A DNA stretch of 40,561 bases from a virus (taxonomy: Duplodnaviria; Heunggongvirae; Uroviricota; Caudoviricetes), in the IMG/VR virus record IMGVR_UViG_3300023371_000083. One strand, 5' to 3'. Numbering within the stretch: position 1 is the stretch's first letter; every line of letters starts with the position of its first letter. The notes beneath the pieces are model-generated. The model ran no database searches. It had not been told where the DNA came from and worked only from the letters and a program-made list of their open reading frames with translations. The position numbers were made by a program, and so were the translations under genes. Shown in pieces: positions 8,416 through 33,300 of this stretch.

Positions 8416-8879
8416 TATTCTTCACCATTAATCTAAGAATTAGCAATATATCCACGATCACGAATCATTTTTCTGAGCTCGACCTTGCAGTCTTTTAGTA
8501 AACTTTTAAGTTCGCTAAGATGCGCTGCCTGAGAATAAAATTTTTCTTCTTTACCACCGAACATTTGTAGCGTATGTAATACTGATTTTACTTGTGGTTC
8601 TAACCACTGAATAACCATTCCGATGGCTAAAATGTTTGTAACATAATCAATATCACCATTTTTAAAAATTTCATTTTTTAGTTCGTATGTTAAAGTCAAA
8701 ATTTCATCATCAAATGTTATTGAAGAAAAAATTTTAGAAATATAAGGTACTGCAACAGCAGAATGTAAATAGCCTTTCATCATTTCGTAAGCATCATTAG
8801 GATTCAATGATGCAAAGTTGTAATCTGTGATTTTAAGTAAAAATTTTGAGTAGATGTCATCATATAGAACGCTGTTCAC
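8415..8879 (-). CDS. Putative head-tail adaptor (TAG at 8433-8435)
   Basis: Ends IANS*INGEE-TAA, with the TAA overlapping the next ATG. Confidence 0.65.
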
Positions 8880-8893
8880 TCAATCACCGCCAC

Positions 8894-9475
8894 TCATCTA
8901 ATTAGGCACATTAAATCAGAACCAAGAATAGAGTCAACTGTTTTAATTTTTGTAATAGAATCAAAAGTGCCGTTTTCAACTCTTTCTGTGATTACAGTTT
9001 TCAGAGTATTTTGCATACTTTTAGGAACTTGTTTTAAAGCTTCTGAAAACTGAGCGTTAGGAAGATTTAGGATTTCATCAATATCCTGTTTTGTAAACGC
9101 ATTATCATATACAGCTTTTACTTTTTCCCATCCCTTAGAATCAATCAGATTATTATCTTCAATAATAAATCTAGGTTTAAACAGATAATTTGAGCGACTA
9201 TCTCTCATATATACAAGATCTTCATATCTAACATTTTCTGTATAACCATGATTTGCCCATTTATAAAGAATGCCGCTTTTTTTAGCAGAACAAAATAACT
9301 CACCAGCTGTCACAGAACGACAGGGGATTAGATCATCTGATTTGTATTCTTTTGCTTTTTTAACACTTTTTTTAGACACAGGAGCCTGTGTAGTTTCTTT
9401 TGTTTCTTCTACAATTACATTTTCAACAGCAACATCTTCAATAGTTGCTGATTTTTTTGCGGGTTTTGTCGCCAT
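8894..9475 (-). CDS. Hypothetical virion-assembly protein downstream of the capsid gene
   Basis: 193-aa ORF with AGGAGG RBS. Confidence 0.7.
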   Translation of the reverse strand: MATKPAKKSATIEDVAVENVIVEETKETTQAPVSKKSVKKAKEYKSDDLIPCRSVTAGELFCSAKKSGILYKWANHGYTENVRYEDLVYMRDSRSNYLFKPRFIIEDNNLIDSKGWEKVKAVYDNAFTKQDIDEILNLPNAQFSEALKQVPKSMQNTLKTVITERVENGTFDSITKIKTVDSILGSDLMCLIR

Positions 9476-9501
9476 ATTATTAATCCTCCTATTTTCTCCT
9501 T

Positions 9502-9529
9502 AAAAATAGGGTGCCCAGAAAGGACACCC
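9502..9529 (-). terminator. Terminator after the major capsid gene
   Basis: GGGTGTCC...GGGCACCC-TATTTT. Confidence 0.65.
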
Positions 9530-9548
9530 ATTGTATTTATAAATCAAA

Positions 9549-10625
9549 TTAAGCTTCGATTTCCCATGTACCGAATTTCTTGCCGATAACTGTAGCTACA
9601 CCCAGTTTCTGCTGATATTCAGCTTCAATAGACATATCTCTATTTGTATCTTTATCAGTTACTTCACTCATCTGAGCATCGCCTTCATCGTACAGTTTGA
9701 TGAATTTGTTATCGCCAACGGGCATAATCAGCAGTTTGCTATTATCAACCAGTTTTGTTGTTGTGTCATGAGGAGCGAATGCTTGGGGAATTTCAACCAG
9801 TCTTGTGCCTTCGAAATAACCCAGTCTACCTGTTGTATATCTTTCTTGTTTCATTTCATTAGAAACCCAATCAACTTCAGACATACCATTCAGTTTAGCC
9901 AGAGCAGATTTTGTACCCATGATAACAACTTCTTCACCTGTAGCTGTCTGAACATCTTCAATCAGTGTGATGAATGTGTCTCTCATAGAAGAATTCAGCT
10001 GACCTGTTTTAGCAAACTGAGATGTAGGCATTACTTTATCGCCAGCAGACATAACTGCTGCATATACCATATCGTTTACTTTTTTGTCAAATCCTTCATA
10101 GATTTTCTGAACAAAACCAGCCCAGTCAATTCTGCCAGCCATGAACAGTTCGTATTCAGCATAGATTTTTACACCATACCAGCTTGTTTTAACATTGAAT
10201 GTTTCGCCTTCAGCCAGTTTCTGTCTAATCAGGTTGTGATGATTACCAGACAGTTCGGATACAGTCAGGATACATTCATTAGGTGCATAGAATTCGTTTG
10301 TATCGCCAGCAGCCATAGATTTCATTTCTACGAATTCGTTGAAGAAAGGATTTTCACCCCAACCGGACACCAGCAGATCTGTTACTGTTTCTTCGATTAC
10401 TTCGTAAACTGCAACTTTATTTTTTCTAATTGCTTTTCTCAGTTCTTTTCTTGTGCAACCTTCATCAACACCTAGAACCTGGAACATTACTTCTCTAATT
10501 TTAGCGTTTGTATCTTCTTTAGATTTTTCATAAATGCCTTGAGCAGCATCAAACATCAGGTTTTTAAAACCATTCTATTCAAATGCAACAAATACGTTGT
10601 TTGTGCTATCGTTTGTGAATCTCAT
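9549..10625 (-). CDS. Major capsid protein (TAG at codon 17, 10575-10577)
   Basis: AGGAGG RBS before ATG 10625 (MRFTNDSTNNVFVAFE*NGFKNLMFD); size, codon style and position fit an SPbeta-type MCP. Confidence 0.8.
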
Positions 10626-14495: not shown

Positions 14496-16511
14496 TTATA
14501 GTCCAGAGAATAGAGAGCTGCGAGTCCCAGTTCTCATTGGTAATTTTTGTGCTAAACTAACATTTGGAGTTTCTTTTTTCTTATTTCTAATTTGGGAAAC
14601 TCGTTTTTCACTCAAATACCAACCAAGCATTGCTAATGTGTAAGCACGGTCATCATGCAACGTGCCTTCACTAGCGCCGGTATCAGCATCTTTATGAGCA
14701 GGAAGTTTAAATGAGTCAGAGCCGCTATCACGTTTTACACGACAAATATTTACAATTTCTTCTTTCATCGCATCAATTTGTGATAAAGCAACTTCTTCAT
14801 CAGGTGATAATTTATACATAATTGTTTGAGCTGTATCTAATTTGTCTAGCTCATCTGCTAGACGTTCTTCATATTCTTTTGTTGGAAGATCTAATTTATC
14901 TAATTCAGCTCTAATTCTTTTTTCGTTTTCTTTAATTGTTTTTGTGTCAATCTGTAGCATATTTAAATAACCACGATTATCATACTTTTCTGGGAATGTA
15001 ATATAATCTCCTTCGACCATTTTAATTAATGCCTCAAACATTTGAGATTTATATTTTGCTGGTTCGAGCATTTTAATTTTATCAACAGCGTTGGGGAATT
15101 TTCTTATGTAGTCTTTAGAAAATTCTTTGTCAATAAATCCACGCTGTTTTTTCCCGGATTTATCCATCCAGTCCTCTAATAAAAAGTCTGGAATACTTTT
15201 ACCGCCACCGCCGGCACCAGCATCAATCATAATACATTCAATATTACCATATAAATCGGCATCTCCATTGTAATCTAAAATCAATTGTTTTAATTCGCTA
15301 ATTTGTTGTGGAGTTGTTTTGGGTGTTTTTTTTCTAGTACTTAAATCCATAAAATTAACACAATTAACAATATCCATCATCCAACCCTTCTCATCGTCAT
15401 AGCGTAATTCACCAACGCTAACAACAGAATTGTCAGTAGATCTTGCAGGGTCATATGCTAATACAAAAGTTCTTTTTCCTGTATCATTACTCATTACAGG
15501 AGGGCGAACATAAGAGTTTCGTGTAATTAATGCACGTTTAATAATTTGTCCGGAACCACCATCTTCCGTGAACACATTATAATATTCTCTTAATGCCTTT
15601 TCTTGATTAACACGCATTTCTGCATCAACAGTTTCCTGACGCAGTAGTGAAGCGGGATAAATTTTTCCGCCTTTTGTGCCTCTAATTACAACATCGCAGT
15701 TAATATCTGCAACAAAATAACGAGGATCGCCTAAAAGCATTTTCTTGGAAAAATCCCTATATTTAGAATAAAACGGTGTATCAATAGAAGATGCAGATGA
15801 AATCTAGACAAGTTGATTTGGAATTTCTCTGGGTAGAGTTCTAATATCCATATCTCCACCCATTTTAAAATCTTTATTTACGATGGTAAATGCACCATAT
15901 ACATTCATCATTTCTTCCGACAAGAAGCCACATTCATCAAATACAACCATATTGCCACGAGCACCTCTTTTGCGGTCAATATTTGAATTCAATGTCTTAG
16001 TAAAAGAACCATTATAAAGACTGTAAAAATGCCCAGATGGATTATGGACAAATCCTTCACCCATGCCATTTCTAATCTCTAATTCTTGTTTAAATACACC
16101 GGTTAACCCAGTCATAGATTCAATATTTCTATTTGCAATATTTTCTAGTGTTTTAAAAGTTGTGATAGCCTGATCGCCAGAGCCAGAGGCAATATATGCC
16201 CAATAGTTATTAAATAGCATACCTTTTGCCATTAACATTAAGTCTGTAATTGAAGATTTACCAAAACCACGACTACACACCCATAAGGAGTAGGGGGTGT
16301 TCCAAGTTTTCATAATAGCATACGCCTGTGCATCAAGTAATTCTGCGCCGATTACATCTTTGATAAATTTAATCGGGTTTTTCTGATACTAAGCACGAAT
16401 TTCAGCAAGTTTTTGAAAACTCTCCAATTTTCTTGTGGACATAGAGTATTCAGTTGGTTTTACAAAAATCTCATAATTCTTGGGGATAAATAATTTATTT
16501 TCATCATTCAT
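14496..16511 (-). CDS. Terminase large subunit, 671 aa (TAG at 16389 and 15804)
   Basis: Walker A SRGFGKS, Walker B VVFDE, motif III LV*ISSAS, nuclease AYDPAR and HDDRAY; three fragments joined in one frame. Confidence 0.9.
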
Positions 16512-19563: not shown

Positions 19564-20790
19564 TCAATTTAGCACAATTGTATATTCACAAACTTTACCT
19601 TTATCCTCTTCAAATACGACGAAAGAAGCGGTGGCATCAGCAGTTTTTCTGATTTTAATACTAAAATCATCAGACCCAACTATAGATCCAACACTAATGA
19701 CACCTTTTCTCACGCCTGTATTTTTAAAGGAGGTATGATGTGTATGTCCTGCAACAATCTAATCGATTTTTACGCCATAAACATGGGCATAATCTTTTAA
19801 GGCTGTTTCAAGATCAGACACTTCACCATGAATACCTAAAATGTTATATCCAGCAATATTTGTAAAAATAAAGCCAGTTTTGTTATAATATACTTGTAAA
19901 TTCTCATTCTTTTCATTAATAAGCTCAATACAAGTTCTTACAACTTTCTCAATATTATCATTTAAATGAGCACCTTTTCGCCCATCTAATAGTCTACATT
20001 CACCATGATTGCCAAATGTATCATAATACTCAACATTGACATAGCGAGATAATTCGTGTAACCAATTACCTATATATCTTCCGAAAATAATAGCACTATC
20101 AATAACACCATAACGCAATGTCCACGCCTGACTATGACGTAAAAATCCATCTAAAGCATCTCCTAAATTAAATACTTTGATAGAATTAAAATCTTCTTTT
20201 TTTACAATGCTGATAGTTTCAGAAAGCAGTAATTCCATTCGATTATAAAATATTTCCGGATTATATTCGTTTATGATCTGGTCATCAAATCCATAAATTT
20301 TAAAATCTTTACCAAAATGACAATCTGCGAAGTTTAATAATCCGAATTTTTTTGATGTTGTAATATCACGCTTTTCAATTTTAATAGGGTGGGGGAGACA
20401 TTCTTTGATTGAATTAATAACTTTTTCCTCAAAAGCTTCTTCTCTTGCTTGTTCTCTAAGCCACTCATTATATTCACGTTTTTCGTCTTGTAATTTAACA
20501 CGCTCAATTCTAATAGCACGTTCTTTTTCATTTAATTTTCTAATAAGCTCATCATTATCAATTCCATTTTTAATCTGGTTTTGATAATATTGCATGACAT
20601 TATAACCGCTAAATGATGTGACATTCGCTGCTTTTCTTAGGCTGTCTGGGTGACAATCTAAACCAAGTAAATCAACAATGTCGCTCCATTCAAGATCTGC
20701 AGGATTCTGTTCAACCTTTAATGTAATAAGGCGCAAACCATATTCCATAAAACTTTCATTTTCCTTTTGAATCTAATTATTAATATCCAT
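19564..20790 (-). CDS. Calcineurin-like metallophosphoesterase (TAG at 20773 and 19759)
   Basis: DCHFG, LGD, GNHG, IHG; the final GHTHH motif lies after the TAG (KID*IVAGHTHH). Confidence 0.85.
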
Positions 20791-20835: not shown

Positions 20836-20982
20836 TTATTCTTCATATCTTTTGTTTTTATGTTTCTCTTTTCTTTTATAGGAGCCTTTTCCTTTTTTGT
20901 TTTTTACAACAAAACCTCGTTTACGATAAGTTAAATATTCCTGCAATTCATCCTTATCCATTTTAAACATTCGTCTATCCAC
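20836..20982 (-). CDS. arfA: ArfA-like alternative ribosome-rescue peptide (48 aa)
   Basis: AAGGAGTGA RBS and GTG start; ...GFVVKNKKGKGSYKRKEKHK matches the ArfA KNKKGKGSYxRKxKH motif. Confidence 0.7.
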   Translation of the reverse strand: MDRRMFKMDKDELQEYLTYRKRGFVVKNKKGKGSYKRKEKHKNKRYEE

Positions 20983-21645: not shown

Positions 21646-22187
21646 AGCTGATAATAGGACTTGAACCTAAATAACGATTTTTATAATACATTAGATGTTA
21701 GCATTATCAATAAGATCCAACTGTTTTGCTAATATATAATCTTTTGCAAAAGACACACCTTTTGTTTGCCCGTTCTTTGGTGAAGAAAATCTTAAAGTTT
21801 TTGATGATGCACATTCAAATACTGGGATCAAATAGCATTCACCATCATAAAATGTTGCAAAATAATCTGTATCATCCGATGTATAATAAACATTTTTAAC
21901 ACTCGAACAATTAACATGTGTGCTTCTACAAGAAATAATAATAGCATTATCGCCATCTAATAATGCAGCAGATTTAACTTGAACACGAAATATTTTTCTG
22001 CCTGTATCAACAATCATGTCCTATTTTGCATTATCACCAAAAGGAATGCTAACCTGACAACCATGTTGATAAAATGCTGTGATGCATTGTAACTCTGTAA
22101 TATTCCCTTTTTGTTTAGTAGTTAAATCCATATATTCACCTATTCTATTATAAAAATCATGCGCTCTGCCAATTGAGCTATACCAGC
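21646..22187 (-). other. tRNA (Thr-like body) split at the anticodon arm by an endonuclease ORF
   Basis: 5' half GCTGGTATAGCTCAATTGGCAGAGCG at 22187-22162; 3' half TAGGTTCAAGTCCTATTATCAGC at 21669-21647; acceptor strands pair. Confidence 0.75.
21691..22131 (-). CDS. PD-(D/E)XK homing-type endonuclease, 146 aa (TAG at 22021-22023)
   Basis: KGNITE...SIPFGDNAK*DMIVD...RVQVKS...DYFA motifs. Confidence 0.85.
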
Positions 22188-22927: not shown

Positions 22928-22955
22928 AATAAGAGAATATTATGACCTATTTTAT

Positions 22956-23095
22956 AATTCTGAGTATAACTGAAATAGAAATTTTTAGCGCTCTCCCAAT
23001 TGAGCTACGGTGCACAACTTAGTACACCGACAGGACTCGAACCCGCAACCTCTCGATTAACCAGTCGAAGTAACTATTTCAACTGCATCAGAATT
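22956..23095 (-). ncRNA. Y-RNA-like unit 2 (YrlA-type, permuted tRNA-mimic domain)
   Basis: Shared motif; internal order is T-arm (GCGGGTTCGAGTCCTGT), capped acceptor hairpin, D-arm (TAGCTCAATTGGGAGAGC). Confidence 0.8.
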
Positions 23096-23109
23096 TTATT
23101 GCATTTTTA

Positions 23110-23238
23110 AGCCGAGAATGTCGTGAATAGTGAAAAAAGTCTATCGCTCTACCAATTGAGCTACCATATTAACCGCAATATAGAATAGATTTGAACTATT
23201 AACACATAGATGAAGTAACTATTCACACTGCATCAGCT
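23110..23238 (-). ncRNA. Y-RNA-like unit 3 (YrlA-type)
   Basis: Shared motif; T-arm AATAGTTCAAATCTATT, then hairpin, then D-arm TAGCTCAATTGGTAGAGC. Confidence 0.75.
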
Positions 23239-23494: not shown

Positions 23495-25126
23495 TTACTG
23501 TTTATTTTTGTTTTCAATTTCATTCCACAGTTCAATCATTCTGGAAGCAAAAATACTTTCTTTGCCTGTCCAACCAGTCATGATATTTGTTCTATATGCA
23601 TATTCTGGAATCAGAATGTTGTTATATCCTGCAGTCTGAATAGAGAATACATTTACTTTTGGATTAACCGCCTTACGGTAATCCTGGATTAGCTTAAATA
23701 CATTTACATGATTATAAGCGCATCCATATTTTTCATGATACTCAGAAACATCTTTGCCTGTACCATACAAGCCGCCATGACCAGCCTGTTGATCGGAATA
23801 AATAAAAATGTTATCCCAGTGTTCTTTATTAGCAATTGCATCTCTAAAGAACTTCCAAATGCCACCTTCTGTTGAGCCGCCAACATCACTATATCTGCTT
23901 TTTGTAATATCTTCAGACTGCTTCAGAATGCCATGTCTTTTGCTGATAGGATATGTTTTTAATCTGTCACCAAATTTACCAACATAACCCTCTTCGGAAC
24001 AAGCTGCAGTAATCACAGAGGAGAGATTATCAATTTCTGCAATACATACACTGCCATATTCTGAAGTAATTGTACCCCATGCAGAACCAGAGTTATCAGA
24101 CAGGCACATTGTTTTGCCTTTCAGCTTTGGCATATTCTGAATAGAAATATCCATACATTCTTCCAAAGCATCGATAATCTGAGGTTTATGATGGCATTTG
24201 CTACCAGATACCGCTTTCAGTGCAGAGTAATATCTGAAAGGGAATTGTTTGCCTTTCAGTACACCAGAAGTTAGTTTTGTAAGGTATTCTTTGCAGAATT
24301 CTGCATCGTCAACTTCTGTAAATACGCCACGCAGATTTCTTAACAAAGCCATATGACCCATATTCGTTGTTCTGAAAATTTCTTTCCAGCCCATACCAGA
24401 GGATCTTAGTGTTTCCCATGTTTTCTGGTCATCATCAACTTTCAGCGTATCATGCATCAGTTTATCCAGAGTAGGGGAGTTTGCGTGAGTGATACGAACT
24501 GCATTAATCATGCCGATTTCGCTATTTTTATATTTGTTTACCTCGTATTCTCTCAGATTGCTAAGTTTAGAAGCAATAGAACGCTTCAGAATACTAGGGA
24601 TATTATTTTTCTGACCTTTATTCAAGAACATATAATAAGCCAGCTGAGTCATTGGCTCATCAGCTCGTCTCATAACCTGTTCATTGATTTTATTGAACAT
24701 GCCATTGTATTCTGCGGAGAACACTTTTCTTTTAGGGTGAATGGCAGCACGAACCATGATAATCTGTGGATTCAGTCTCATGTTGTACTCATTTCTTAAC
24801 TCAACGGCAAGATTCAGAGTACCCATAAAGTCGTAGTCCAAAGCGTTATCTACACATTCTTCCATAATCTGAGTGGTTGTTTTACCATCAGAAAATTTCA
24901 GAACCAGGCTGTCTCGCACAATACGATCCAGATAAGATTTACCATCTCTAACTGCTGGTCTATAATAAGACGCTTCGCCAAAAATGGAAGATGCCATTAC
25001 CATTTTCAGTGTATCAAGAGGATTGATAACATAGCTATCTCCACCCATGAAGTTTGTCACTGTTTCATCTCTACGAAGCTTTGCTTCTTCGTGCATGAAC
25101 TTTACACTTTTACTCATTTTGCTCAT
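23495..25126 (-). CDS. rsr: Ro60/TROVE-domain RNA-binding protein (543 aa)
   Basis: NFMGGDSY, MALLRNL, QFPFRYYSA, vWA MIDAS DNSGS; AAGGAGG RBS before ATG 25126. Confidence 0.9.
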   Translation of the reverse strand: MSKMSKSVKFMHEEAKLRRDETVTNFMGGDSYVINPLDTLKMVMASSIFGEASYYRPAVRDGKSYLDRIVRDSLVLKFSDGKTTTQIMEECVDNALDYDFMGTLNLAVELRNEYNMRLNPQIIMVRAAIHPKRKVFSAEYNGMFNKINEQVMRRADEPMTQLAYYMFLNKGQKNNIPSILKRSIASKLSNLREYEVNKYKNSEIGMINAVRITHANSPTLDKLMHDTLKVDDDQKTWETLRSSGMGWKEIFRTTNMGHMALLRNLRGVFTEVDDAEFCKEYLTKLTSGVLKGKQFPFRYYSALKAVSGSKCHHKPQIIDALEECMDISIQNMPKLKGKTMCLSDNSGSAWGTITSEYGSVCIAEIDNLSSVITAACSEEGYVGKFGDRLKTYPISKRHGILKQSEDITKSRYSDVGGSTEGGIWKFFRDAIANKEHWDNIFIYSDQQAGHGGLYGTGKDVSEYHEKYGCAYNHVNVFKLIQDYRKAVNPKVNVFSIQTAGYNNILIPEYAYRTNIMTGWTGKESIFASRMIELWNEIENKNKQ

Positions 25127-25265: not shown

Positions 25266-25355
25266 CGGAGCGAGTGAGGTTCGAACTCACACACGACATC
25301 CCTGCCGCCTAATGGTTTTCAAGACCATCCTCTTAGCCAATTTGAGTATCGCTCC
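25266..25355 (-). tRNA. tRNA-Ser (TGA)
   Basis: ATGGT-CT TGA AA-ACCAT, long variable arm, G73. Confidence 0.9.
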
Positions 25356-26058
25356 AAAATAATTCGTCAAAATTTATTTTTAATTTTTGTTCATCTGGGA
25401 TGTCTCTCCAATATCTCCATAAAAACCCAAATGCTGTTGTGTTTTCACCTCTACGATTACTTAATGAATCGCATATAGCACCACTATTTGGATTTTTATT
25501 AAATCGTCTATTTGCCTCAGATTTACTCTTATAAATAGAGATAATTGAATATGTAAAAGGATCTATTTGACATAAAAAACCACCATTTTCTTTAATTAAT
25601 AAATCTCTACATTCGTCACATGTTAGCCATTTTATATTATGTTTAGCTAAAATTTTTTTGACTGATTTTGGATCTATATTAAAATAACTAGCAGTCCTAC
25701 CTGCAACATATTTTGCAATAGAGCAATGATATTCAATAATTTCATTATCTGTAAATTGAATATATGGTTTTCCATCACCACCAATTGTCGCATTATACCC
25801 ATTAGATCCATATGTGTTTAGCTATTGAATCCAATATTTTTCTCTTGATTCAATATCATCTGTTTCCTCGATTATTTCAAATGAAAAATTGTCTATGCCA
25901 TATTTGTTCATTGCGCTCTACAAAGGACGCTTTTCGCATCTTCTTGTTTTGCTATCTTTTATATGTTCTTTAAAACGGTCATTTGGATTTAAATGATTTG
26001 TTTTGCCAACATATTGTTTTCCATTAATTTTATTAGTGATAACATAAATCTAACCCAA
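25333..26058 (-). CDS. GIY-YIG homing endonuclease A with NUMOD1-like C-terminus (TAG at 26050, 25918, 25822)
   Basis: GGAGG RBS and TTG start; MG*IYVITNKINGKQYVGKT...GYNATIGGDG...TAFGFLWRY; missed by the ORF track; 3' end overlaps tRNA-Ser. Confidence 0.85.
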
Positions 26059-26234: not shown

Positions 26235-26885
26235 TTATTTTTTTAAATAAGACCATTTATATCCCTAAGCGTGTTTATTTTTTCCTCTCAAAACTTCATA
26301 TATTGCCGAAGAAGTTCTGCTTTTGCCAAATGCTTCATTGGCGTCTGCGACACTGTTAAACTGCGCAATAATTTCATTACTTTTACAATCAATCTGACAA
26401 ACAATATTTCCACGCTCAGAGATTAATACCTGATTAACTTCATCAGAATTTAAATGATGAATATTATATTTATCTAAAATAGTATTAACGGTTTTGGGAT
26501 CAAGGTGAAAATAACGAGCAGTTCTCGCAGATATATATTTTGCTTCTGTACAATGCTAAATAATTATATCTTGATCACTATAAGGCACATAAGAACGCCC
26601 ATCTCCTCCACGGGTAGCATTATACCCATTCGATCCATAAGTACCGAATTTTTGAATATAATACATTTCTCTATCTTCTGGGGAGTATGTTTCTTCGATT
26701 ATTTCAAAAACAAAATTCTCAACACCATATTTATTAAATGCTCTATAAAGAGGGCGGTTTTTGCAACGATCTTTTTTACTATCTTTTATATGCTGATAAA
26801 ATCTCTCAATAGGATTTGTTTTTTCTGTTTTTCCTATCTATTTTTTACCATTAATTAAATTTGTAATAGAATATATGTAAGCCAA
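26235..26885 (-). CDS. GIY-YIG homing endonuclease B, paralog of A (TAG at 26838, 26556, 26265)
   Basis: AAGGTGG RBS and TTG start; MAYIYSITNLINGKK*IGKT...GYNATRGGDG...HA*GYKWSY. Confidence 0.85.
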
Positions 26886-26910: not shown

Positions 26911-26994
26911 TGGGTTATGAAGGTACTGCCCCTCCCTGGCTACAATAGCAATTGATTTAGAGTCAACCCGGCCTCTTTATCCGTCTAATAACCC
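26911..26994 (-). tRNA. Amber suppressor tRNA (anticodon CTA), tRNA-Tyr-like
   Basis: Perfect 7-bp acceptor GGGTTAT/ATAACCC, A73, GTTGA-CT CTA AA-TCAAT, long variable arm; non-canonical T-loop GGCAGTA. Confidence 0.85.
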
Positions 26995-27003
26995 GAAAAT
27001 TAG

Positions 27004-27074
27004 CTACCCTGCGTGGATTCGAACCACGACCGTAAGAATCAAAATCTCATGTGCTACCATTACACCACAAGGCA
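27004..27074 (-). tRNA. tRNA-Gln (TTG)
   Basis: TGAGA-TT TTG AT-TCTTA, U1-A72, G73. Confidence 0.9.
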
Positions 27075-27165
27075 TCAATATACAGCAGGGGCTGGAGATA
27101 CATGATTTGAAATGAAACAACATAAATGTGTAATATTTGGAAGGATGGTGCCCCTGCTGTGTCAA

Positions 27166-27510
27166 TTATTCAATTTTATCTTTTCTTTCTTTATTTACAC
27201 GAATTTCATAGTGATCTGTGCAAATAGGATAGATTTTTAACTTATCTGGAACAGTTCTTTCTTCGCCAAACAGAGCAATATATTCTGTATAACCATCTCT
27301 TGGTTTAAGTTCAATATTAATACCATCAAGAATTTTAATTGTAGTATTTTTGTCCTTTGGAGAATTTACAATCATTTCGTGTAATACTTCTCTGAAAGCG
27401 TCATACATCAAATTAACATCTTTCTGATAAAAATCGCATTTTTTAGCTACTGCTCTTACAATATCTTTCTGACGAATAAAAACCGTTTCTTTTTCTTGGT
27501 TTTCTTTCAT
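27166..27510 (-). CDS. HU/IHF-like DNA-binding protein
   Basis: KDIVRAVAKKCDFYQKDV helix followed by a beta-arm; HU sits near the RNAP gene in SPbeta too. Confidence 0.7.
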   Translation of the reverse strand: MKENQEKETVFIRQKDIVRAVAKKCDFYQKDVNLMYDAFREVLHEMIVNSPKDKNTTIKILDGINIELKPRDGYTEYIALFGEERTVPDKLKIYPICTDHYEIRVNKERKDKIE

Positions 27511-27514
27511 TTAA

Positions 27515-28171
27515 TCACTCCTTGAAAATATCCTCTACATTTGTAACAATTTCATCACAAACACCGAGTTCTTTTGCTTCAGACGCAGAAATAAACCATT
27601 CAGAACCAAATTTTTCATCCATCATCTCTTGTGGAATATTAGTTCTTTTCATAATATAAGCTTCCATTTCTTCCATCTGACGCTGATACTCCAAGATATG
27701 AGCAATAATTTCATCATAAGTTCCTTGAAAATTACCACTGCCTTTATGAATTAAGAAAGTGGCACTAGGCATAGCGTATCTCTTATGGCAAGCAAGATAC
27801 ATCATGCATCCTGCACTATATGCCATACCCATATTTACACCAATTACTGGAGTTTTAGATGTTTCAATCAAATCAATCATTGCATTATTAACATCTAATG
27901 AACCGCCAGGGCTGAAGAACAGTAAATAAATTGGTTTTCTATTTTCAACTGGTAAACCTGTATCATCTTTATTCCACATCATGATATATTTACCAAATTC
28001 AAGAAAGCCATCTGTTACATCCATATCCAGCCAGAGAATACGATTCTCTAGGTTTTTATACTATGTAAGTAATTCTGGAGAGGGGAGCTGTAAATTCTCA
28101 ACATATTTAGGAATTAAAGCTTGAATCAGCTGTTCCTCTGTCATAATTTGTTTTTGATTATTATTATCCAT
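27515..28171 (-). CDS. clpP: ClpP-like peptidase (TAG at 28061-28063)
   Basis: SPGGS, GMAYSAG, FLIH, EAKELG motifs; AAGGAG RBS before ATG 28171. Confidence 0.85.
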
Positions 28172-28247
28172 AGTTCTCCTTTTTGCTGACAATATTTTTT
28201 AGTTTAGAGTTGTTTAAAAAAATATCGCTCAACTAACTTACAAACTT

Positions 28248-28276
28248 ATTATATCATAGATCGTTTAGATTGTCAA
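28248..28276 (-). promoter_or_regulatory. Consensus sigmaA/sigma70 promoter upstream of clpP-HU-tRNA island
   Basis: TTGACA-17 nt-TATAAT with extended -10 TG and an A-rich UP region. Confidence 0.85.
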
Positions 28277-28329
28277 CAGTATTTTTTAATTTAAACAATA
28301 TTTTTTTATTTAAAATTTTGGTAGATAGA

Positions 28330-28349
28330 AGCAGGGGAGTACCCCTGCT
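28330..28349 (-). terminator. Hairpin closing the RNAP operon
   Basis: AGCAGGGG-TACT-CCCCTGCT; weak T-tail. Confidence 0.45.
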
Positions 28350-28419
28350 ATATTTCTTATCCTACCATATTAGAAAAATGAAAAACGATTTCCTAAAACA
28401 CACGGAATCTACATATGTT

Positions 28420-29331
28420 TTATTCAAATTCATCATTTTCTGGTCTGTGGACATTTTTTATACTATCTCGTTGCAAAGCTTTTTGTTTTGTATAATAATT
28501 TTTCCGATAAACAGTATAACAATCACTACATCTCTCGGATCTTGTATCTTTAATGCTTGTCTCAAATAGTTTTCCGCAGTCGATACAAACGATATATTTC
28601 GTAGTAACAGGCGATAACTTAGAGCATTGTTTACAAATCTTAGAATGAGACGAACCTTTGCTTTTTATTTTTTGTTTTGGAAACTTTTCATATTTGCCAC
28701 ATACATTACAGAAGAATCCTTTTCCAGATAAAACCATATACTGATTACCAAGATCAACAAGACTGGTGATAGGGTAGTTTTCTCCATCAGACATAATTTC
28801 AACTTTAATGTTTGTATTACTACATTTAAGTGATAATGAAATTTGTCCAGAATTCTTTAAGTAATGAATTTTAAGCATTTTAGATTTTTTATCACCATTC
28901 ATATTAGCAAGCTTAAATAATTTTACCCAATCCACATTAACCCAGTTTGAGTTCTCTGGTCTGGCAGCATTATACTATTTAGCAAGACATAGACAAGTGA
29001 ACATTAATTTTTCAGCTTGATCGTCACATAAAGATTGTATTTCATCAAGCTCTGAATCACTAATATAAATAGTGTCCACCTCTAATAATGGCTATTTTTT
29101 TGCGTTGTTGATATATTTACAAACAACATCATACCATTCGTCAGAATTATATCCCGAATAGTTTTTCATCATAAATTCATCAATTTTTTGAAGAATGATT
29201 TTCTTTCTATATCCAGAAATATGCCAAAAATATCTGACGAGTAACTGCACTGTGGCTGAAGGCTTCTTGTCAACAATTCCTTGCTCCAGAATTTTTTCAG
29301 CCTATTTTCTTTCATTTAACAATAATTCCAT
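28420..29331 (-). CDS. Conserved hypothetical protein with C-terminal Zn fingers, coupled to the RNAP gene (TAG at 29302, 29092, 28975)
   Basis: Read-through reaches an ATG overlapping the RNAP TGA; four CxxC pairs. Confidence 0.75.
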
Positions 29332-32075
29332 CAAATATCACCTCCCGAAATAACCTTTTCTTTAATTGCAAATCGCTCACCGCAATAAACAATATCACCA
29401 TCGGCATCTTTAGCAGGGTATTTGATTGTCATATTATTTTTTTCAAGCAAATTAGATAGGATAGTGCTACCACATAAATCCCATGCAAATTGTTTAGACT
29501 TGTTATTTGTATAGCAAAGATCAATTACAATATTACATAAGCGTTTTGCATTAGGACAAATTTCATAACATTCTCTAACAAAAATATCTTGAAACATTTG
29601 CCTTGCAACTTTTCTGCTTTCTTCATCTATGTTGTCAACTTTAACATCCTGTGCATACTGTTGAACACGCTTACCATATTCAAGGTATATATTTTTAATT
29701 TTCTCAAATTCATCTGCTGTGTATTCAACATCTGATTTTAAAATAGATGCATCAAATTCTGGATATACATAATCAAAATCTGGATAATGTTCTACTTTAT
29801 GACAAATGCGATTTACAACACAGTCAGTATCAGTAACAGGAATGTTATTATGATAATACATTAGGAATATTTCTTCATCTGTGGTTCTATCATCAGAACT
29901 CAATAAATCATTTAATGATTTCCCAAACGATCCCCAACATTTCATATCACAAGCATTAACATATTTATCATAATCACTTTTCAGATAATCATAATTCTAC
30001 ATGAAGAAATAGGGTTTCTTACACGCTGCCGTTCTCTGATAGATCATCTTCAACTCTTTTACATCATCTGGATCATCATCATTGATACGGTTAACCTTAT
30101 TGTCATACCAGTGTCTAGGCATGGGTTTTGCAATAATCCCTTTTGCTTTATCAATTTGGTTTTGTTGCTCCAACTGCCCACAAATAATACGCTATTGTAG
30201 CACTTCATACTCTGGGCTTCCTTCTGGATACATTGCTTGTAAACAAATCTGAGAAGTAATAATGTTTGTAGTTGAACCGATGGCGTCACCAAAGCTCAAC
30301 TTATTTGAAGTAATTAAATCTTCCTCAGTTGGAATTTTCTTTTCTGCTTTACGCTGAATACACTGAATTACAGGAAGATTTTTTGTATTCCGTAATAAAA
30401 TTTCTGAATTAGTGGTATAAAACATATCGCCATCATGATCACTACCATTTAATGCTTCTGCGGTTGTATCCCAACTGTTTAATAGCATACATGTGGTAAT
30501 CTATTTATACCAATAATCTATTTCTGCGTTTGATACAGGCTTCATTTTTCTGATATTGTATTCAGAAGACATTGGTGCTCTGAAGCAGACAATTTCTTCT
30601 ACATTTCTATCAGACCAGTACTTATGCTAACATTCACCTTTTTTCAAAAGCCCAGTAACTTCTAACCCAAACATATTTTGTGCCAATGAATAAGGATCTC
30701 CGCCGGTAACAGCAAAGTTCGCATCAAGTTTAAGTACACCAATTTTTGCCTGTTTGATTTTTTTCTTTACCATGTGGTAGATTTTGCTTCTGATAAACGG
30801 ATCGTTAATCAGTCTGCTGTCAACCATCAGCGCTTTTGCGAAATCAAAAAAATCATCAGAGAATACATTTTTATCATTAATGCCAAATCCACAAAGGAAC
30901 AGTGCCGACTTTCTCCAATCCATACCCATTACATCACAGATTTCGTCCATAGTAGGTTTGATGAGTGCATCAACTTCTACATCAGAAAGTTTCTAGTTCT
31001 GTAAAAATTGATAATTTGTTTCACGGACGCTATCTAATTCGTAAGGTGTAACTTTAGAAACAGCAAAACTATATCCGTTTTCTATGGTATTAATCCAATA
31101 ATCCTCCCAAGATGAATAATGATCCCATAACTTTAACATTGAAGCAGTCAAAATAACTTCTGCGTCTCTAACATCTCGTTTTGTACCCCAAACATCTATG
31201 ATTTCATATGTTCCTGCAACTTTTTCTGCAAAATCAATAAAATCAAATGTAAAGAGCATTCCTTTAGACCAGGGTAAACCCCTTGTGTTTACGCCAGAAA
31301 TATATTTGCCATATTCTCCACCAAGTTCAATATTCCAACGAAAGGATAAGGAAGGGAGCATAAAACCATACCCATCGCTATCAACCAAGGATATTTCTTG
31401 ATTTTTTAAAAAGGAAAGGGTGGGCTCTTCACCTTCGCTATCATCGACCCGAATGATGTCCTCAAAGAATTTTGTTTCGCAATCCGGCACAACAATAATA
31501 CCATTTGGATTTGATACAGGAATAGATCCACTACAAACCAACGCTTGGTATGCCTCCAGCTTTGCGGGGACAATAGGAATTTCTTTGTTTCTGCCATTGT
31601 CAATTCTTCGCTTTAACTCTGGGTACAAACGCTCACTGACATAAACAATTGTGGAGTTTTTAATACCACCATTTGTGCCAAGTAATCGTTTATACTGAAC
31701 ACCATTAATAGAAAAACCTTTATTGGCTCGATCATAATCAGAATCTCTATCAATAATCAAACACATATAATCTTCTTGAAATTGTGTTTCCTATAAGGCT
31801 TTCTATAGGCGTTTCATGTGTTCTTTATTCTCTTGTGAAGTTTCTTGTCTTCTTAATCTTTTAATTTCGTTTTTTAGCATTTTAGCTTTTGCATCAGTGT
31901 TTACACAGTTCAACTCGTCGATGAACCGTAAAATCTGACTATCAGAAAGAGCGATAACATCTGTTTTGTTCTTTAGTGCTACATCAAGAGGTAGCTCTAA
32001 ATCCCATTTTGCCTTTCTAAGACGGCTGCTATGCAGTTTGTAAATCTACTTATGGCAAGCCTTTTGTTTAGCTAT
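29331..32075 (-). CDS. yonO: YonO-like single-subunit (double-psi beta-barrel) RNA polymerase, ~914 aa, 8 in-frame TAG
   Basis: NGSDHDGD catalytic motif plus DSDGYG, KGML, FRAPM, IDKAKG; fragments joined in one frame; apparent ATA start. Confidence 0.85.
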
Positions 32076-32135
32076 TACTATTCATCCTTTCTACATGTAA
32101 ACCATATCAGTTTAAAAGTACCCCCATTTTTTAGG

Positions 32136-32480
32136 TTTGGCTGGATAATTTTTGCATTTAATTTTTCAGATGAGGAATTCCTTAACTTAAACCAGTTATC
32201 TCAAATTCCTTCCAGTCAAACTCAAAATTCTGGGGTAAAACACCCATTCTAGTCAAAAAGTTACACTGAAAATTTTGTTTAGATGAAAAGTTTTAGGATT
32301 GCCGAATCAAATCAGTGTAACTAGCAACAATGTGAATCCTCAATTTACATATGTTATAATGATTTATTACATGCTAACAATATTTTTTAGTTTGGCTGGA
32401 TAAAAAAATAAATCAACCCCTCAGATGAGGAATTGGTCATCCTTGAGCTGTTACCCTTAAAATTTAGGGTTTGGCTGGGA
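32136..32480. repeat. Imperfect direct repeats upstream of the RNAP gene
   Basis: GTTTGGCTGG three times; TCAGATGAGGAATT twice, at the same distance from a TTTGGCTGGATAA copy. Confidence 0.55.
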
Positions 32481-32511
32481 GATTTTCGGCTAAAAAGGGC
32501 ATTCTGAACAT

Positions 32512-32784
32512 TTAGTTACATTTACGCTGTGCATTTACTGCCAACATCCGTTCAGCTTGCTCTGGCGGAACATCTCTAATCTTACTTCTGATGGTGATTA
32601 ATCTTTTGGGAAACTTATAGGTTTTGCCATAAGCATCCTCTGAGTAAATACTAAATAGGGAAGGGTTGGCTTCGACCAGTTTCTCCATTTTAGTGATCCA
32701 TGTAGTATCAGAACAGTATAGCTATGCATATTCGTCTGTCCGCATTGCGGTGATATGCATTTCTTGTTCATCTTTTTGAACCAT
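32512..32784 (-). CDS. Small hypothetical protein, 90 aa (TAG at 32722-32724)
   Basis: GAGGTGA RBS; MVQKDEQEMHI...DEYA*LYCSDTTWITKMEKL...GKTYKFPKRLITIRSK. Confidence 0.75.
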
Positions 32785-32837
32785 TGTGCTCACCTCGTTT
32801 TGTTTCGCATTGATGTGCGGAATCAACGCTTAATGTG

Positions 32838-32866
32838 ATTATAGCAGAAGTCTTGTGAAATATCAA
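32838..32866 (-). promoter_or_regulatory. sigmaA-type promoter
   Basis: TTGATA-17 nt-TATAAT with extended -10 TG. Confidence 0.7.
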
Positions 32867-32894
32867 CAATTTGAAGCCAAAAGGTTGTTGCATA

Positions 32895-33300
32895 ATTGTA
32901 CTATTATATCTAATTATAATTATATATATTATATAATTTATTAAATTTATAATTATTATATCTATAACTAATATCTATTGTATTATATATATTAATATAT
33001 ATATTATATATATTATAATATTTATATATTATATATAAATAATGTTTACTAATAATATCTTTAAGTAGATATTATAGATTATTGTTTACTAATATATATA
33101 TTTATTTAGATATATTATAACATTGTTTAATAATCTCTTTTGTTTTTTAGATACGATTTTTTAAATTGTGTTAACAATTTAAAAAGAATATAGAATAGTA
33201 AACCAAGATTATTAGTAAACCTTTTTATTAGTAAACCATGTTTAATATTAAGCTATATAGTTAAACAATGTTTAATAATAAGCTATATATAATAATATAA
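32895..33300. other. Extremely AT-rich non-coding tract with short repeats at the strand switch
   Basis: Near-pure A/T; TAGTAAAC/GTTTACTA five times; ATGTTTAATAnTAAGCTATATA twice. Confidence 0.7.

Follow-up and report, generated by a model that had tools for sequence, protein, structure and literature searches.

A candidate amber-suppressor lock on the YonO-like RNA polymerase and late genes of an SPbeta-like gut phage

Phage SPbeta encodes its own RNA polymerase, YonO, whose transcription of late genes has been shown for that phage only, as far as the available part of the source goes (PMC5467207); the same text places the start of the YonO late transcript upstream of yonK (PMC5467207). The SPbeta repressor MrpR is described, in the accessible part of its report, as binding at ten sites that carry a repeated 15-base-pair (bp) element, the yonP promoter among them (PMC10516654). 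Among phages whose code differs from that of the host, the available part of a survey lists only TAG to Gln and TGA to Trp, and proposes that recoding controls late genes and lysogeny (10.1101/2021.08.26.457843), and TAG codons inside RNA polymerase genes are reported, in the sections at hand, for crAss-like phages (10.64898/2026.08.21.746148, PMC7886860). Here we analyse a 40,561-nucleotide (nt) stretch (the window) of the virus record IMGVR_UViG_3300023371_000083 (Caudoviricetes), and in particular its positions 28248 to 32866, in which a YonO-like RNA polymerase gene with eight in-frame TAG (amber) codons lies upstream of a host-type promoter and, beyond it, of a gene for a tRNA that would read TAG. 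The phage is an SPbeta-like gut phage and probably temperate. Twenty listed sequencing runs contain the stretch in whole or in part; all are of DNA from animal gut or faeces, and none is of RNA. We propose that its polymerase and late genes depend on this phage tRNA-Tyr(CUA) through a repressor-linked on/off lock against leaky expression, resting on ambers near the 5′ ends of genes, and give this reading a probability of about 0.5.

Amber codons in the polymerase and late genes, and the tRNA that would read them

The polymerase is a single chain of 914 residues with an ATA start (29331..32075; coordinates are those of the window, and features lie on the minus strand, unless stated otherwise), recognised by homology and by a DxDGD motif at residues 546-550. 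It is 25% identical to SPbeta yonO over residues 115-655 (E 3e-17); the query gave no Pfam or NCBIfam match, and a sequence search for a solved structure found none. A sequence-only reading of the window had singled it out as the gene with the most TAGs, and indeed its eight, at codons 10 (32048), 91 (31805), 95 (31793), 361 (30995), 483 (30629), 525 (30503), 628 (30194) and 693 (29999), are the highest number among the 127 genes called in the virus record that contains the window (G000; 82,047 bases, linear, 64% complete). The three TAGs ascribed to the coupled partner gene were also found, at codons 10, 80 and 119. This partner (28420..29331; 303 residues, phage family phrog_30716) overlaps the polymerase stop, and its TAGs stand at codons 34 and 163 in G001, a recoded relative whose polymerase is 72% identical (record 45% complete). 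Two separately deposited proteins, 99% identical to the polymerase and called from a start past codon 10, have all seven internal sites as well, so the polymerase TAGs are not assembly errors. For codon 10, the read tally of run X16 shows the third base unchanged, the first two bases lying outside the tally shown.

The G000 genes come from our own caller, which combines a codon score with the ribosome-binding site and treats TAG as neutral. It placed 93 genes on the early arm and 34 on the other, where one 35-codon call over tRNAs was dropped, leaving 33; three starts were shifted upstream by hand after comparison with G001. The latter was located via its capsid protein. Polymerase-seeded scans of viral, metagenome and genome contigs, together with two DNA patterns, found no close relative with DNA. 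A 15-nt anticodon pattern matched 118 loci, just one of which has any similarity to G000, and a tRNA pattern matched 12 genome loci, none of them a tRNA or a related phage. Besides G000 and G001, polymerase relatives were compared as proteins only, from a collection that stores the genes of G000 itself as table-15 translations, and in these relatives Gln at a Tyr column is taken to indicate TAG. The recorded proteins of the clade come from contigs of 107-161 kb.

Several comparisons point to Tyr as the amino acid encoded. At polymerase codons 91, 95, 361, 483, 525, 628 and 693 the aligned column holds Tyr in 120, 107, 118, 115, 119, 118 and 117 of 120 homologues, respectively, and that of codon 10 varies (Phe 55, Leu 24, Tyr 23, gap 11, Met 5, Gln 1, Arg 1). 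The two TAG columns of the terminase large subunit (14496..16511; codons 41 and 236) hold Tyr in 112/120 and 119/120, and the single one, codon 17, of the probable major capsid protein (9549..10625; named by position and size, with no library match) in 85/120. Where 26 TAGs of G000 can be followed in 26 orthologue pairs with G001, they face TAT/TAC 17 times, TAG 6, Phe 2, Asn 1 and Gln 0 times; conversely, 28 TAGs of G001 face TAT/TAC (15), TAG (6), gap (3), Gln (1), Met (2) and Lys (1). On a contig from run X20, polymerase codons 91 and 95 are both TAT. Genetic code 15, in which TAG is Gln, is ruled out by this comparison with G001 and by the log-odds summed over the polymerase TAG columns, −19.7 for Gln versus +22.0 for Tyr. 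On these alignments, TAG almost certainly stands for Tyr. A capsid homologue at 64% identity (P0367) has Gln at aromatic columns 17 and 25, suggesting a further TAG=Tyr lineage outside the close clade.

The recoding is confined almost entirely to one arm. On the early arm, which in G000 carries replication, tRNA repair, the MrpR-like repressor and the integrase, one internal TAG stands against 840 TAT/TAC in 93 genes, compared with 38/521 in the 33 genes of the other arm (p=1e-15). The integrase and MrpR-like genes have no TAG, and three early-arm gene ends with TAG are ambiguous. The sole early-arm internal TAG is in Sak, at codon 4; among the 22 homologues listed (of 29), 11 have Tyr there and none has Gln.

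The tRNA that would decode these ambers (26911..26994; anticodon CTA at 26960..26958) is of the Tyr type, with G1:C72, A73, a long variable arm and an atypical T loop. Bacterial tRNA-Tyr is identified by G1:C72, A73, U35-A36 and a long variable arm, and all of these are present in the three suppressor copies, those of G000, G001 and L191, the last from the 13.7-kb record of a distant phage. The suppressor resembles the ordinary phage tRNA-Tyr(GUA) (22196..22278) in acceptor stem, anticodon loop and discriminator base. Neither ARAGORN, which lists 13 tRNAs, nor Rfam (E<=0.1) called it; its G001 and L191 homologues do receive calls as CTA tRNAs. The three copies have their acceptor stem and CUA loop in common; each of the 65 counted cells is paired, and at 7 of the 22 pairs both sides have changed, a covariation over three sequences, with the structure taken from the same alignment, that is supportive and is not a probability. 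The code-change module of Jade phages combines a tRNA with a synthetase and a release factor; no release factor (PF00472) was found in G000 and no class Ib synthetase (PF00579) in G000 or G001, in records that are 64% and 45% complete. The CUA tRNA is thus very probably the suppressor, tyrosylated by the host enzyme. The L191 copy lies at 8959..8874 (minus strand) of its locus, whose 11 main genes lack in-frame TAG, possibly a state before recoding.

Six of the eight polymerase TAGs precede the DxDGD motif, and because this motif lies behind them, an active polymerase would need suppression; on the sequence, dependence of the polymerase on the phage tRNA-Tyr(CUA) appears well founded. The sequence-only reading had late transcription wait until amber suppression is efficient. 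The need of an active polymerase for suppression upholds that part, whereas the steep, eight-step form given to it does not stand (see below), and a late role of YonO is known only in SPbeta.

Promoters, a repeated element and a predicted repressor

A perfect sigmaA-type promoter (28248..28276; TTGACA-17-TATAAT, 12/12, extended TG -10) precedes the tRNA cluster. It is the only 12/12 site among 77 promoter-like sites in 20-36 kb, and the G000 record has two in total. Its -10 box lies 1,254 nt from the suppressor gene, in agreement with the distance of about 1.25 kb first read from the sequence. In the 72%-identical G001, a sigmaA-type promoter precedes the tRNA cluster at the same place, as a 10/12 extended site. 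A further sigmaA-type promoter (32838..32866; 11/12, extended -10) lies upstream of a small open reading frame (ORF) and the polymerase gene.

The first promoter is surrounded by three copies of a 17-bp element, AAACTAAAAAATATTGT, which occurs 14 times at <=2 mismatches, 14/14 intergenic, compared with a mean of 0.1 in 40 block shuffles. Two of these copies (28311..28295 and 28292..28276) have two mismatches each, the second overlapping the first base of the -35 box, and an exact copy (28189..28205) sits between the promoter and the ribosome-binding site of a ClpP-like gene. Another exact copy, a candidate repressor operator, lies in the polymerase leader (32377..32393), just downstream of a terminator-like hairpin (32435..32414). 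Of the others, the leader of the MrpR-like gene has one, two sigmaA promoters of the early arm share four, and five stand ahead of ribosome-binding sites. G001 is without the 17-bp element; a 16-nt element of its own abuts the -35 box of the matching promoter, with one further exact copy upstream. The MrpR-like gene of G000 (14937-15866 of that record) matches PF22822 (N-terminal domain; E 1e-10, above cut-off) and PF22823 (E 1e-4, below cut-off), and the integrase is identified with E 1e-35. In the SPbeta gene order, yonP lies directly before yonO. We lean towards taking the 17-bp element as the operator of the repressor. By analogy with SPbeta, a lysogen would keep the suppressor off and induction would turn it on, with predicted MrpR-like control. 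The polymerase may also transcribe the tRNA, as the G000 cluster fills the gap corresponding to the region in which the SPbeta YonO late transcript starts.

Two observations touch these leaders and promoters. In the 440-nt polymerase leader, a 24-nt repeat occurs three times and a 33-nt repeat twice (32486..32129); both are found nowhere else in G000 and are absent from G001. The Sak gene (locus L154, 3880..3284, minus strand) heads the replication genes behind an element-flanked sigmaA promoter, and a possible small upstream ORF has two more TAGs; an explanation of the Sak amber by the sole strong promoter of its arm was weakened by a second 12/12 early-arm promoter, which leads to TAG-free genes.

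In the proposed lock, the phage repressor would hold off the host-type promoter from which the tRNA is likely switched on. Translation of polymerase and late mRNAs that leak through in a lysogen, or at the very start of infection, would then abort within 10-60 codons. After derepression, the host tyrosyl-tRNA synthetase would charge the phage tRNA(CUA), which would accumulate and allow the polymerase and its partner to be made, and the late genes would be licensed at transcription and translation both. Extra ambers would give a deeper off state and a delayed onset, and would hardly sharpen the response. More tentatively, in a clade of temperate gut phages the repressor-held suppressor and a selected amber among the first dozen polymerase codons, with further ones early in terminase, capsid and partner, might form a genetic-code switch within the lysis-lysogeny circuit, equivalent to an AND of derepression and code change, possibly with a positive loop between polymerase and tRNA.

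Selection or tolerance of the 5′ ambers, and rival readings

The lock rests on ambers near gene starts, and the TAGs are indeed biased towards the 5′ end. In G000, 19/38 lie within 60 codons of the start where within-gene shuffles expect 9.2 (P=5e-5); in G001 the count is 28/55 against 13.4 expected (rank test p=2e-8), with five 5′ sites common to both, the 60-codon cut-off having been chosen on G000 and G001 being a repeat of the result. Wrong starts do not explain these TAGs, because 13/13 of those of G000 in orthologue pairs fall in aligned sequence. Ranked by 5′ bias, TAG comes first among codons in G001 and second to CGG in G000. Within the first 30 codons, its share is 11/49 in G000, above a crude neutral share of 10% (p=0.009), and 16/79 in G001, above the genome-wide neutral value (p=0.03). 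The number of genes with a 5′ amber is slightly above expectation (17 vs 14.5 in G000, 24 vs 22.0 in G001). An amber falls within the first 12 polymerase codons in 4/4 lineages with a visible start, at codon 10 in G000, P0004 and P0131 (in the latter two as judged from Gln in that column) and at codon 12 in G001. In the terminase, the first amber shifts among relatives, to codon 41, 42 or 64; one 70-residue fragment stops exactly at 64, and two terminase proteins called from residue 24 have no TAG. The capsid codon-17 TAG is common to G001.

A number of observations weigh against the lock as proposed. The 16/79 of G001 is near a local neutral share of 18%, the one-per-gene spreading of ambers is marginal (P=0.08 and 0.20, combined 0.037), and retention of 5′ TAGs between the two phages (5/10, odds ratio 7.0) does not significantly exceed the neutral value for transversions, a ratio of 2.35 (P=0.14). 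Along G000 genes the TAG share declines smoothly (22, 12, 6, 4, 4, 5%), as a cost-of-truncation model likewise predicts, and the rare codon CGG has a similar 5′ tilt. There is no TAG in six G000 and eleven G001 genes of >=150 residues, including the G000 portal, nor in the capsid gene of a 79% clade, where codon 17 is not amber. As to the tRNA, the free fold of the G000 copy is no better than that of shuffles (z=0.0), its T loop is atypical, and L191, where none of the 11 main genes has an in-frame TAG, has the tRNA as well. As to its control, the 17-bp motif was first picked by eye from few copies, no copy lies <=110 nt from the promoter at 32866, and the frequent placement of the element just before ribosome-binding sites would also suit an activator site or an RNA-level signal. 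The evidence for selection on the 5′ amber is weak, and we give even odds to the view that the 5′ amber is kept by selection as a lock and the internal ambers are merely tolerated.

The strongest rival, which we hold to be doubtful, has no selected gate: after acquisition of the suppressor, TAG would be a failure-prone third Tyr codon and the dependence on the tRNA incidental. It would drift to its neutral level where failure is cheap, as at gene starts, in a weakly expressed polymerase and in homing endonucleases, and be purged where failure is costly, deep in genes or before the tRNA is made. Such a by-product fits the depletion of TAG past codon 60 (19/405 and 27/665, p<1e-4) and the counts in the GIY-YIG genes (3/21 and 3/16). 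Furthermore, neither the 8/53 of the polymerase differs from the crude neutral 10% (p=0.25) nor the 4/50 of its G001 counterpart from 12%, internal retention between G000 and G001 is neutral-like (1/13, odds ratio 2.5), and the better adapted the codons of a G000 gene, the lower its internal TAG share (rho -0.46, p=0.04, n=20). However, this last trend is missing in G001 (rho 0.02, n=33), the first-30-codon share is above the crude neutral one in G000 and above the genome-wide one in G001, polymerase and terminase retain a 5′ amber at shifting codons, and strongly adapted structural genes still have one 5′ amber each (capsid 17, scaffold/protease 21).

Improbable, in our estimate, is a positive feedback in which the phage polymerase mainly transcribes the tRNA cluster and a trickle from the host promoter primes the loop, after which polymerase and suppressor would amplify each other, an arrangement that could be switch-like even if serial read-through is not. 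In G000 the space from the HU-like gene to the YonJ homologue (E 1e-43) is taken up by the cluster and matches the SPbeta interval in which YonO transcription starts; an 11-bp G+C-rich stem with a long loop (27081..27160), between the HU-like gene and the first tRNA, likewise favours the loop. Against it, no YonO promoter motif is known; a short-word comparison of the gap with SPbeta, G001 and G003 gave tRNA and endonuclease matches only, and no terminator-like site was called between the sigmaA promoter and the tRNA. The suppressor is also the second tRNA, 170 nt past the HU-like stop, in G000, but lies further downstream in G001. A late-promoter motif common to the intergenic stretches was not seen.

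The version of the lock put forward by the sequence-only reading, in which a polymerase specially loaded with eight ambers makes late transcription steep in suppression efficiency, is very improbable. Its density of TAG per Tyr codon does exceed that of other late genes nominally (8/53 vs 30/468, p=0.029), yet taken family-wise, as the richest of 33 genes, it does not (P=0.37), nor does it against its own neighbours (12/115, p=0.44), and the partner (3/20) and the GIY-YIG endonucleases (3/21, 3/16) are comparably rich. TAG is more frequent in the block from the small ORF through the tRNA cluster (20/168) than in the structural one (18/353; p=0.007; in G001 the two counts are 9/96 and 38/653), a point in favour of special loading, as is an 88% clade whose polymerase independently has six inferred TAGs, at mostly other sites (128, 145, 361, 486, 693, 769; first 33 residues not called). 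The G001 polymerase, by contrast, has four (12, 91, 433, 705; 4/50 vs 51/802, p=0.41) and the 74-76% clade one or two (P0004, codons 10 and 506; P0131, codon 10), and eight further polymerases at 73-76% show no inferred TAG from their called start (residue 30-66) to the end. Eight rows of this kind group as one clade (SH-aLRT, the Shimodaira-Hasegawa-like approximate likelihood-ratio test, 100) in a quick tree built on a choice of 24 rows among the top matches, three of the eight being assigned only by shortened starts. The TAG load is thus not conserved, its count varying from about 1-7, and the relatives largely refute special loading. The steepness fares no better. A yield declining as p^8 would indeed give a very deep off state; in a simple model of competition between tRNA and release factor, with read-through s/(s+K) per codon, the effective Hill coefficient is only 1.0, 1.30, 1.36 and 1.41 for n=1, 4, 8 and 50, the half-point shifts from 1 to 11 K at higher amber number, and the off state deepens. 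To have 10% of the polymerase full-length would take a read-through of about 75% at each codon. Within this model, eight ambers would delay and silence expression without sharpening the response.

Finally, that the host itself reads TAG as Tyr, the phage merely following the host code with nothing gated, is barely credible. In its favour, no G000 gene clearly needs a TAG stop (three early-arm ends being ambiguous); the near-complete TAG avoidance in the 93 early-arm genes argues against it, as do the phage's own CUA tRNA, the TAG-ended genes of non-recoded relatives at 44-59% identity, the long ORFs ending in TAG in candidate host-family genome stretches (1/15 and 2/13, a crude count) and the suppressor pattern, matched in 0/113 candidate-family genomes. 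As to which host this might be, the IS256 transposase at the end of the G001 record matches one from an Anaerotignum genome bin at 96% identity, and the G001 capsid protein is labelled 'Firmicutes bacterium CAG:466' by one source. An Anaerotignum genome carries a non-recoded YonO prophage, and the phage contigs in G020 and G097 are not recoded; no spacer-like match was found among the 113 candidate-family genomes, with two candidates per genome scored.

Two ideas on the polymerase gene were discarded. The ATA start is not a second brake special to recoded phages: it is also found in the non-recoded G003 and G020, and four 44% relatives have TTG. Fragments of 362 and 554 residues in 58% clusters are not a sign of the codon-361 TAG, as the break falls at the catalytic motif instead; these polymerases (P0135-P0143, P0147, P0151, P0156) are split there into 554 + 362 residues, probably by an intron.

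Neighbouring features and comparison with known systems

The gene order beyond the polymerase follows that of SPbeta. An 8-bp hairpin (28330..28349, no strand assigned) separates the partner gene from the promoter, after which come the ClpP-like protease gene (27515..28171; TAG codon 37, also TAG in G001) and the HU-like DNA-binding protein gene (27166..27510; phrog_379, E 2e-4), the positional equivalent of SPbeta yonN, which has no TAG. Its weakly conserved G001 orthologue (locus L174, 10394..10726, plus strand) has two. Past the tRNAs, the YonJ homologue (19564..20790), whose TAGs fall near codon 344 and, should translation begin at the upstream ATG, at codon 6, is the first large gene of the structural operon, whose order matches SPbeta (YonJ, E 1e-43; YonG, E 3e-9; YonF, E 3e-10; YonE, E 6e-4). 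On the other side of the polymerase lie the small ORF (32512..32784; 90 residues, phrog_1709), with TAG at codon 21 and a G001 orthologue without TAG, and a candidate replication origin, an extremely A+T-rich repetitive stretch (32890..33300) at the switch of coding strand and GC skew.

The tRNA cluster, which opens with tRNA-Gln(UUG) (27003..27074), has accessory genes of its own. Between the tRNAs stand two GIY-YIG endonuclease genes (26885..26235 and 26058..25333) with three TAGs each, the first at codons 16 and 3, and inside the cluster there are a TROVE/Ro60-like gene without TAG and two Y RNA-like (YrlA) matches below gathering score (25126..23495, 23225..22951). A tRNA gene (22187..21646), probably Lys (UUU), has its anticodon loop interrupted by ~460 nt; the insert encodes a 146-residue PD-(D/E)XK endonuclease with TAG at codon 37, and its ends pair into a long helix, so that a group I core would not fit. 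RtcB is encoded as well, as part of a rich tRNA repair set on the G000 early arm that further comprises Pth2, Thg1 and an RlaP-like nucleotidyltransferase (8599..10276, 29326..30195 and 31527..32555 of the G000 record). Directly after the cluster, at the position of SPbeta yonK, a 48-residue ORF (20982..20836) resembles ArfA, ribosome rescue factor A (PF03889, above cut-off).

In the available parts of the literature searched (including 10.1101/2023.08.07.552389), we found no TAG=Tyr phage, no 5′ amber bias and no suppressor under repressor control. As far as the available texts go, recoding as a late-gene timer or lysogeny lock has been proposed before from genome surveys, without a mechanism that turns the suppressor on. 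This phage offers small, named parts for such a mechanism, namely one tRNA, a promoter with a candidate operator, a repressor and a polymerase with a codon-10 amber, and it extends phage codes beyond TAG=Gln. Public protein collections store these genes with Gln at conserved Tyr positions or as fragments, and the tRNA escapes standard finders; sparse recoders are therefore likely to be mis-annotated and under-counted. A natural amber tRNA-Tyr working in gut Clostridia could also serve as a tool.

The E. coli suppressor supF is a laboratory mutant of tRNA-Tyr in which G34 is changed to C, so that, charged by the host synthetase, it reads UAG as Tyr. In a whole-genome eukaryotic code, ciliate nuclear code 29, UAG is likewise Tyr. 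Unlike either, the tRNA described here is a conserved, natural phage tRNA, and the reassignment is partial and probably timed. The phage resembles TAG-recoded gut phages (crAss-like, Lak, Garnet, Topaz, Agate and others), as far as the accessible parts of those reports describe them, in having in-frame TAG in structural and late genes with early genes and integrase free of it, and in a phage CUA tRNA ahead of the recoded block and a proposed control of late expression and lysogeny; those phages have no synthetase of their own, and none of class Ib was found in the incomplete G000 and G001 records (10.1101/2021.08.26.457843, PMC7886860, PMC9523058, 10.1101/2022.06.29.495998). It differs from them in that TAG is very probably Tyr, sparse (about 7% of late-arm Tyr codons) and 5′-biased, that the likely late-gene polymerase is itself recoded, and that a candidate repressor operator brackets the promoter ahead of the tRNA.

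With SPbeta YonO, as covered in the available text, the polymerase shares the DxDGD motif (PMC5467207), and the genes after it, for HU-like, YonJ, YonG, terminase and portal homologues, keep the SPbeta order, whereas yonO of SPbeta is in one piece, with no sign of recoding and no coupled partner, and here the partner, the ClpP-like gene and a 14-tRNA cluster are inserted. As in the SPbeta MrpR system, within what the source's available part describes, there is an MrpR-like gene, and an intergenic element recurs at promoters, in the leader of the repressor gene itself and ahead of the polymerase gene (PMC10516654); unlike there, where that part of the text does not mention a suppressor tRNA as a target, the promoter ahead of the tRNA would be controlled, the operator here being a candidate. 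The arrangement is similar in logic to a synthetic suppressor-tRNA 'leak dampener', a feed-forward loop in which, according to the accessible part of its report, one regulator governs both a gene bearing stop codons and the tRNA that reads through them, and leak is reduced (PMC7969014). That circuit was engineered in E. coli, and the lock proposed here would be its natural counterpart, acting on a phage RNA polymerase.

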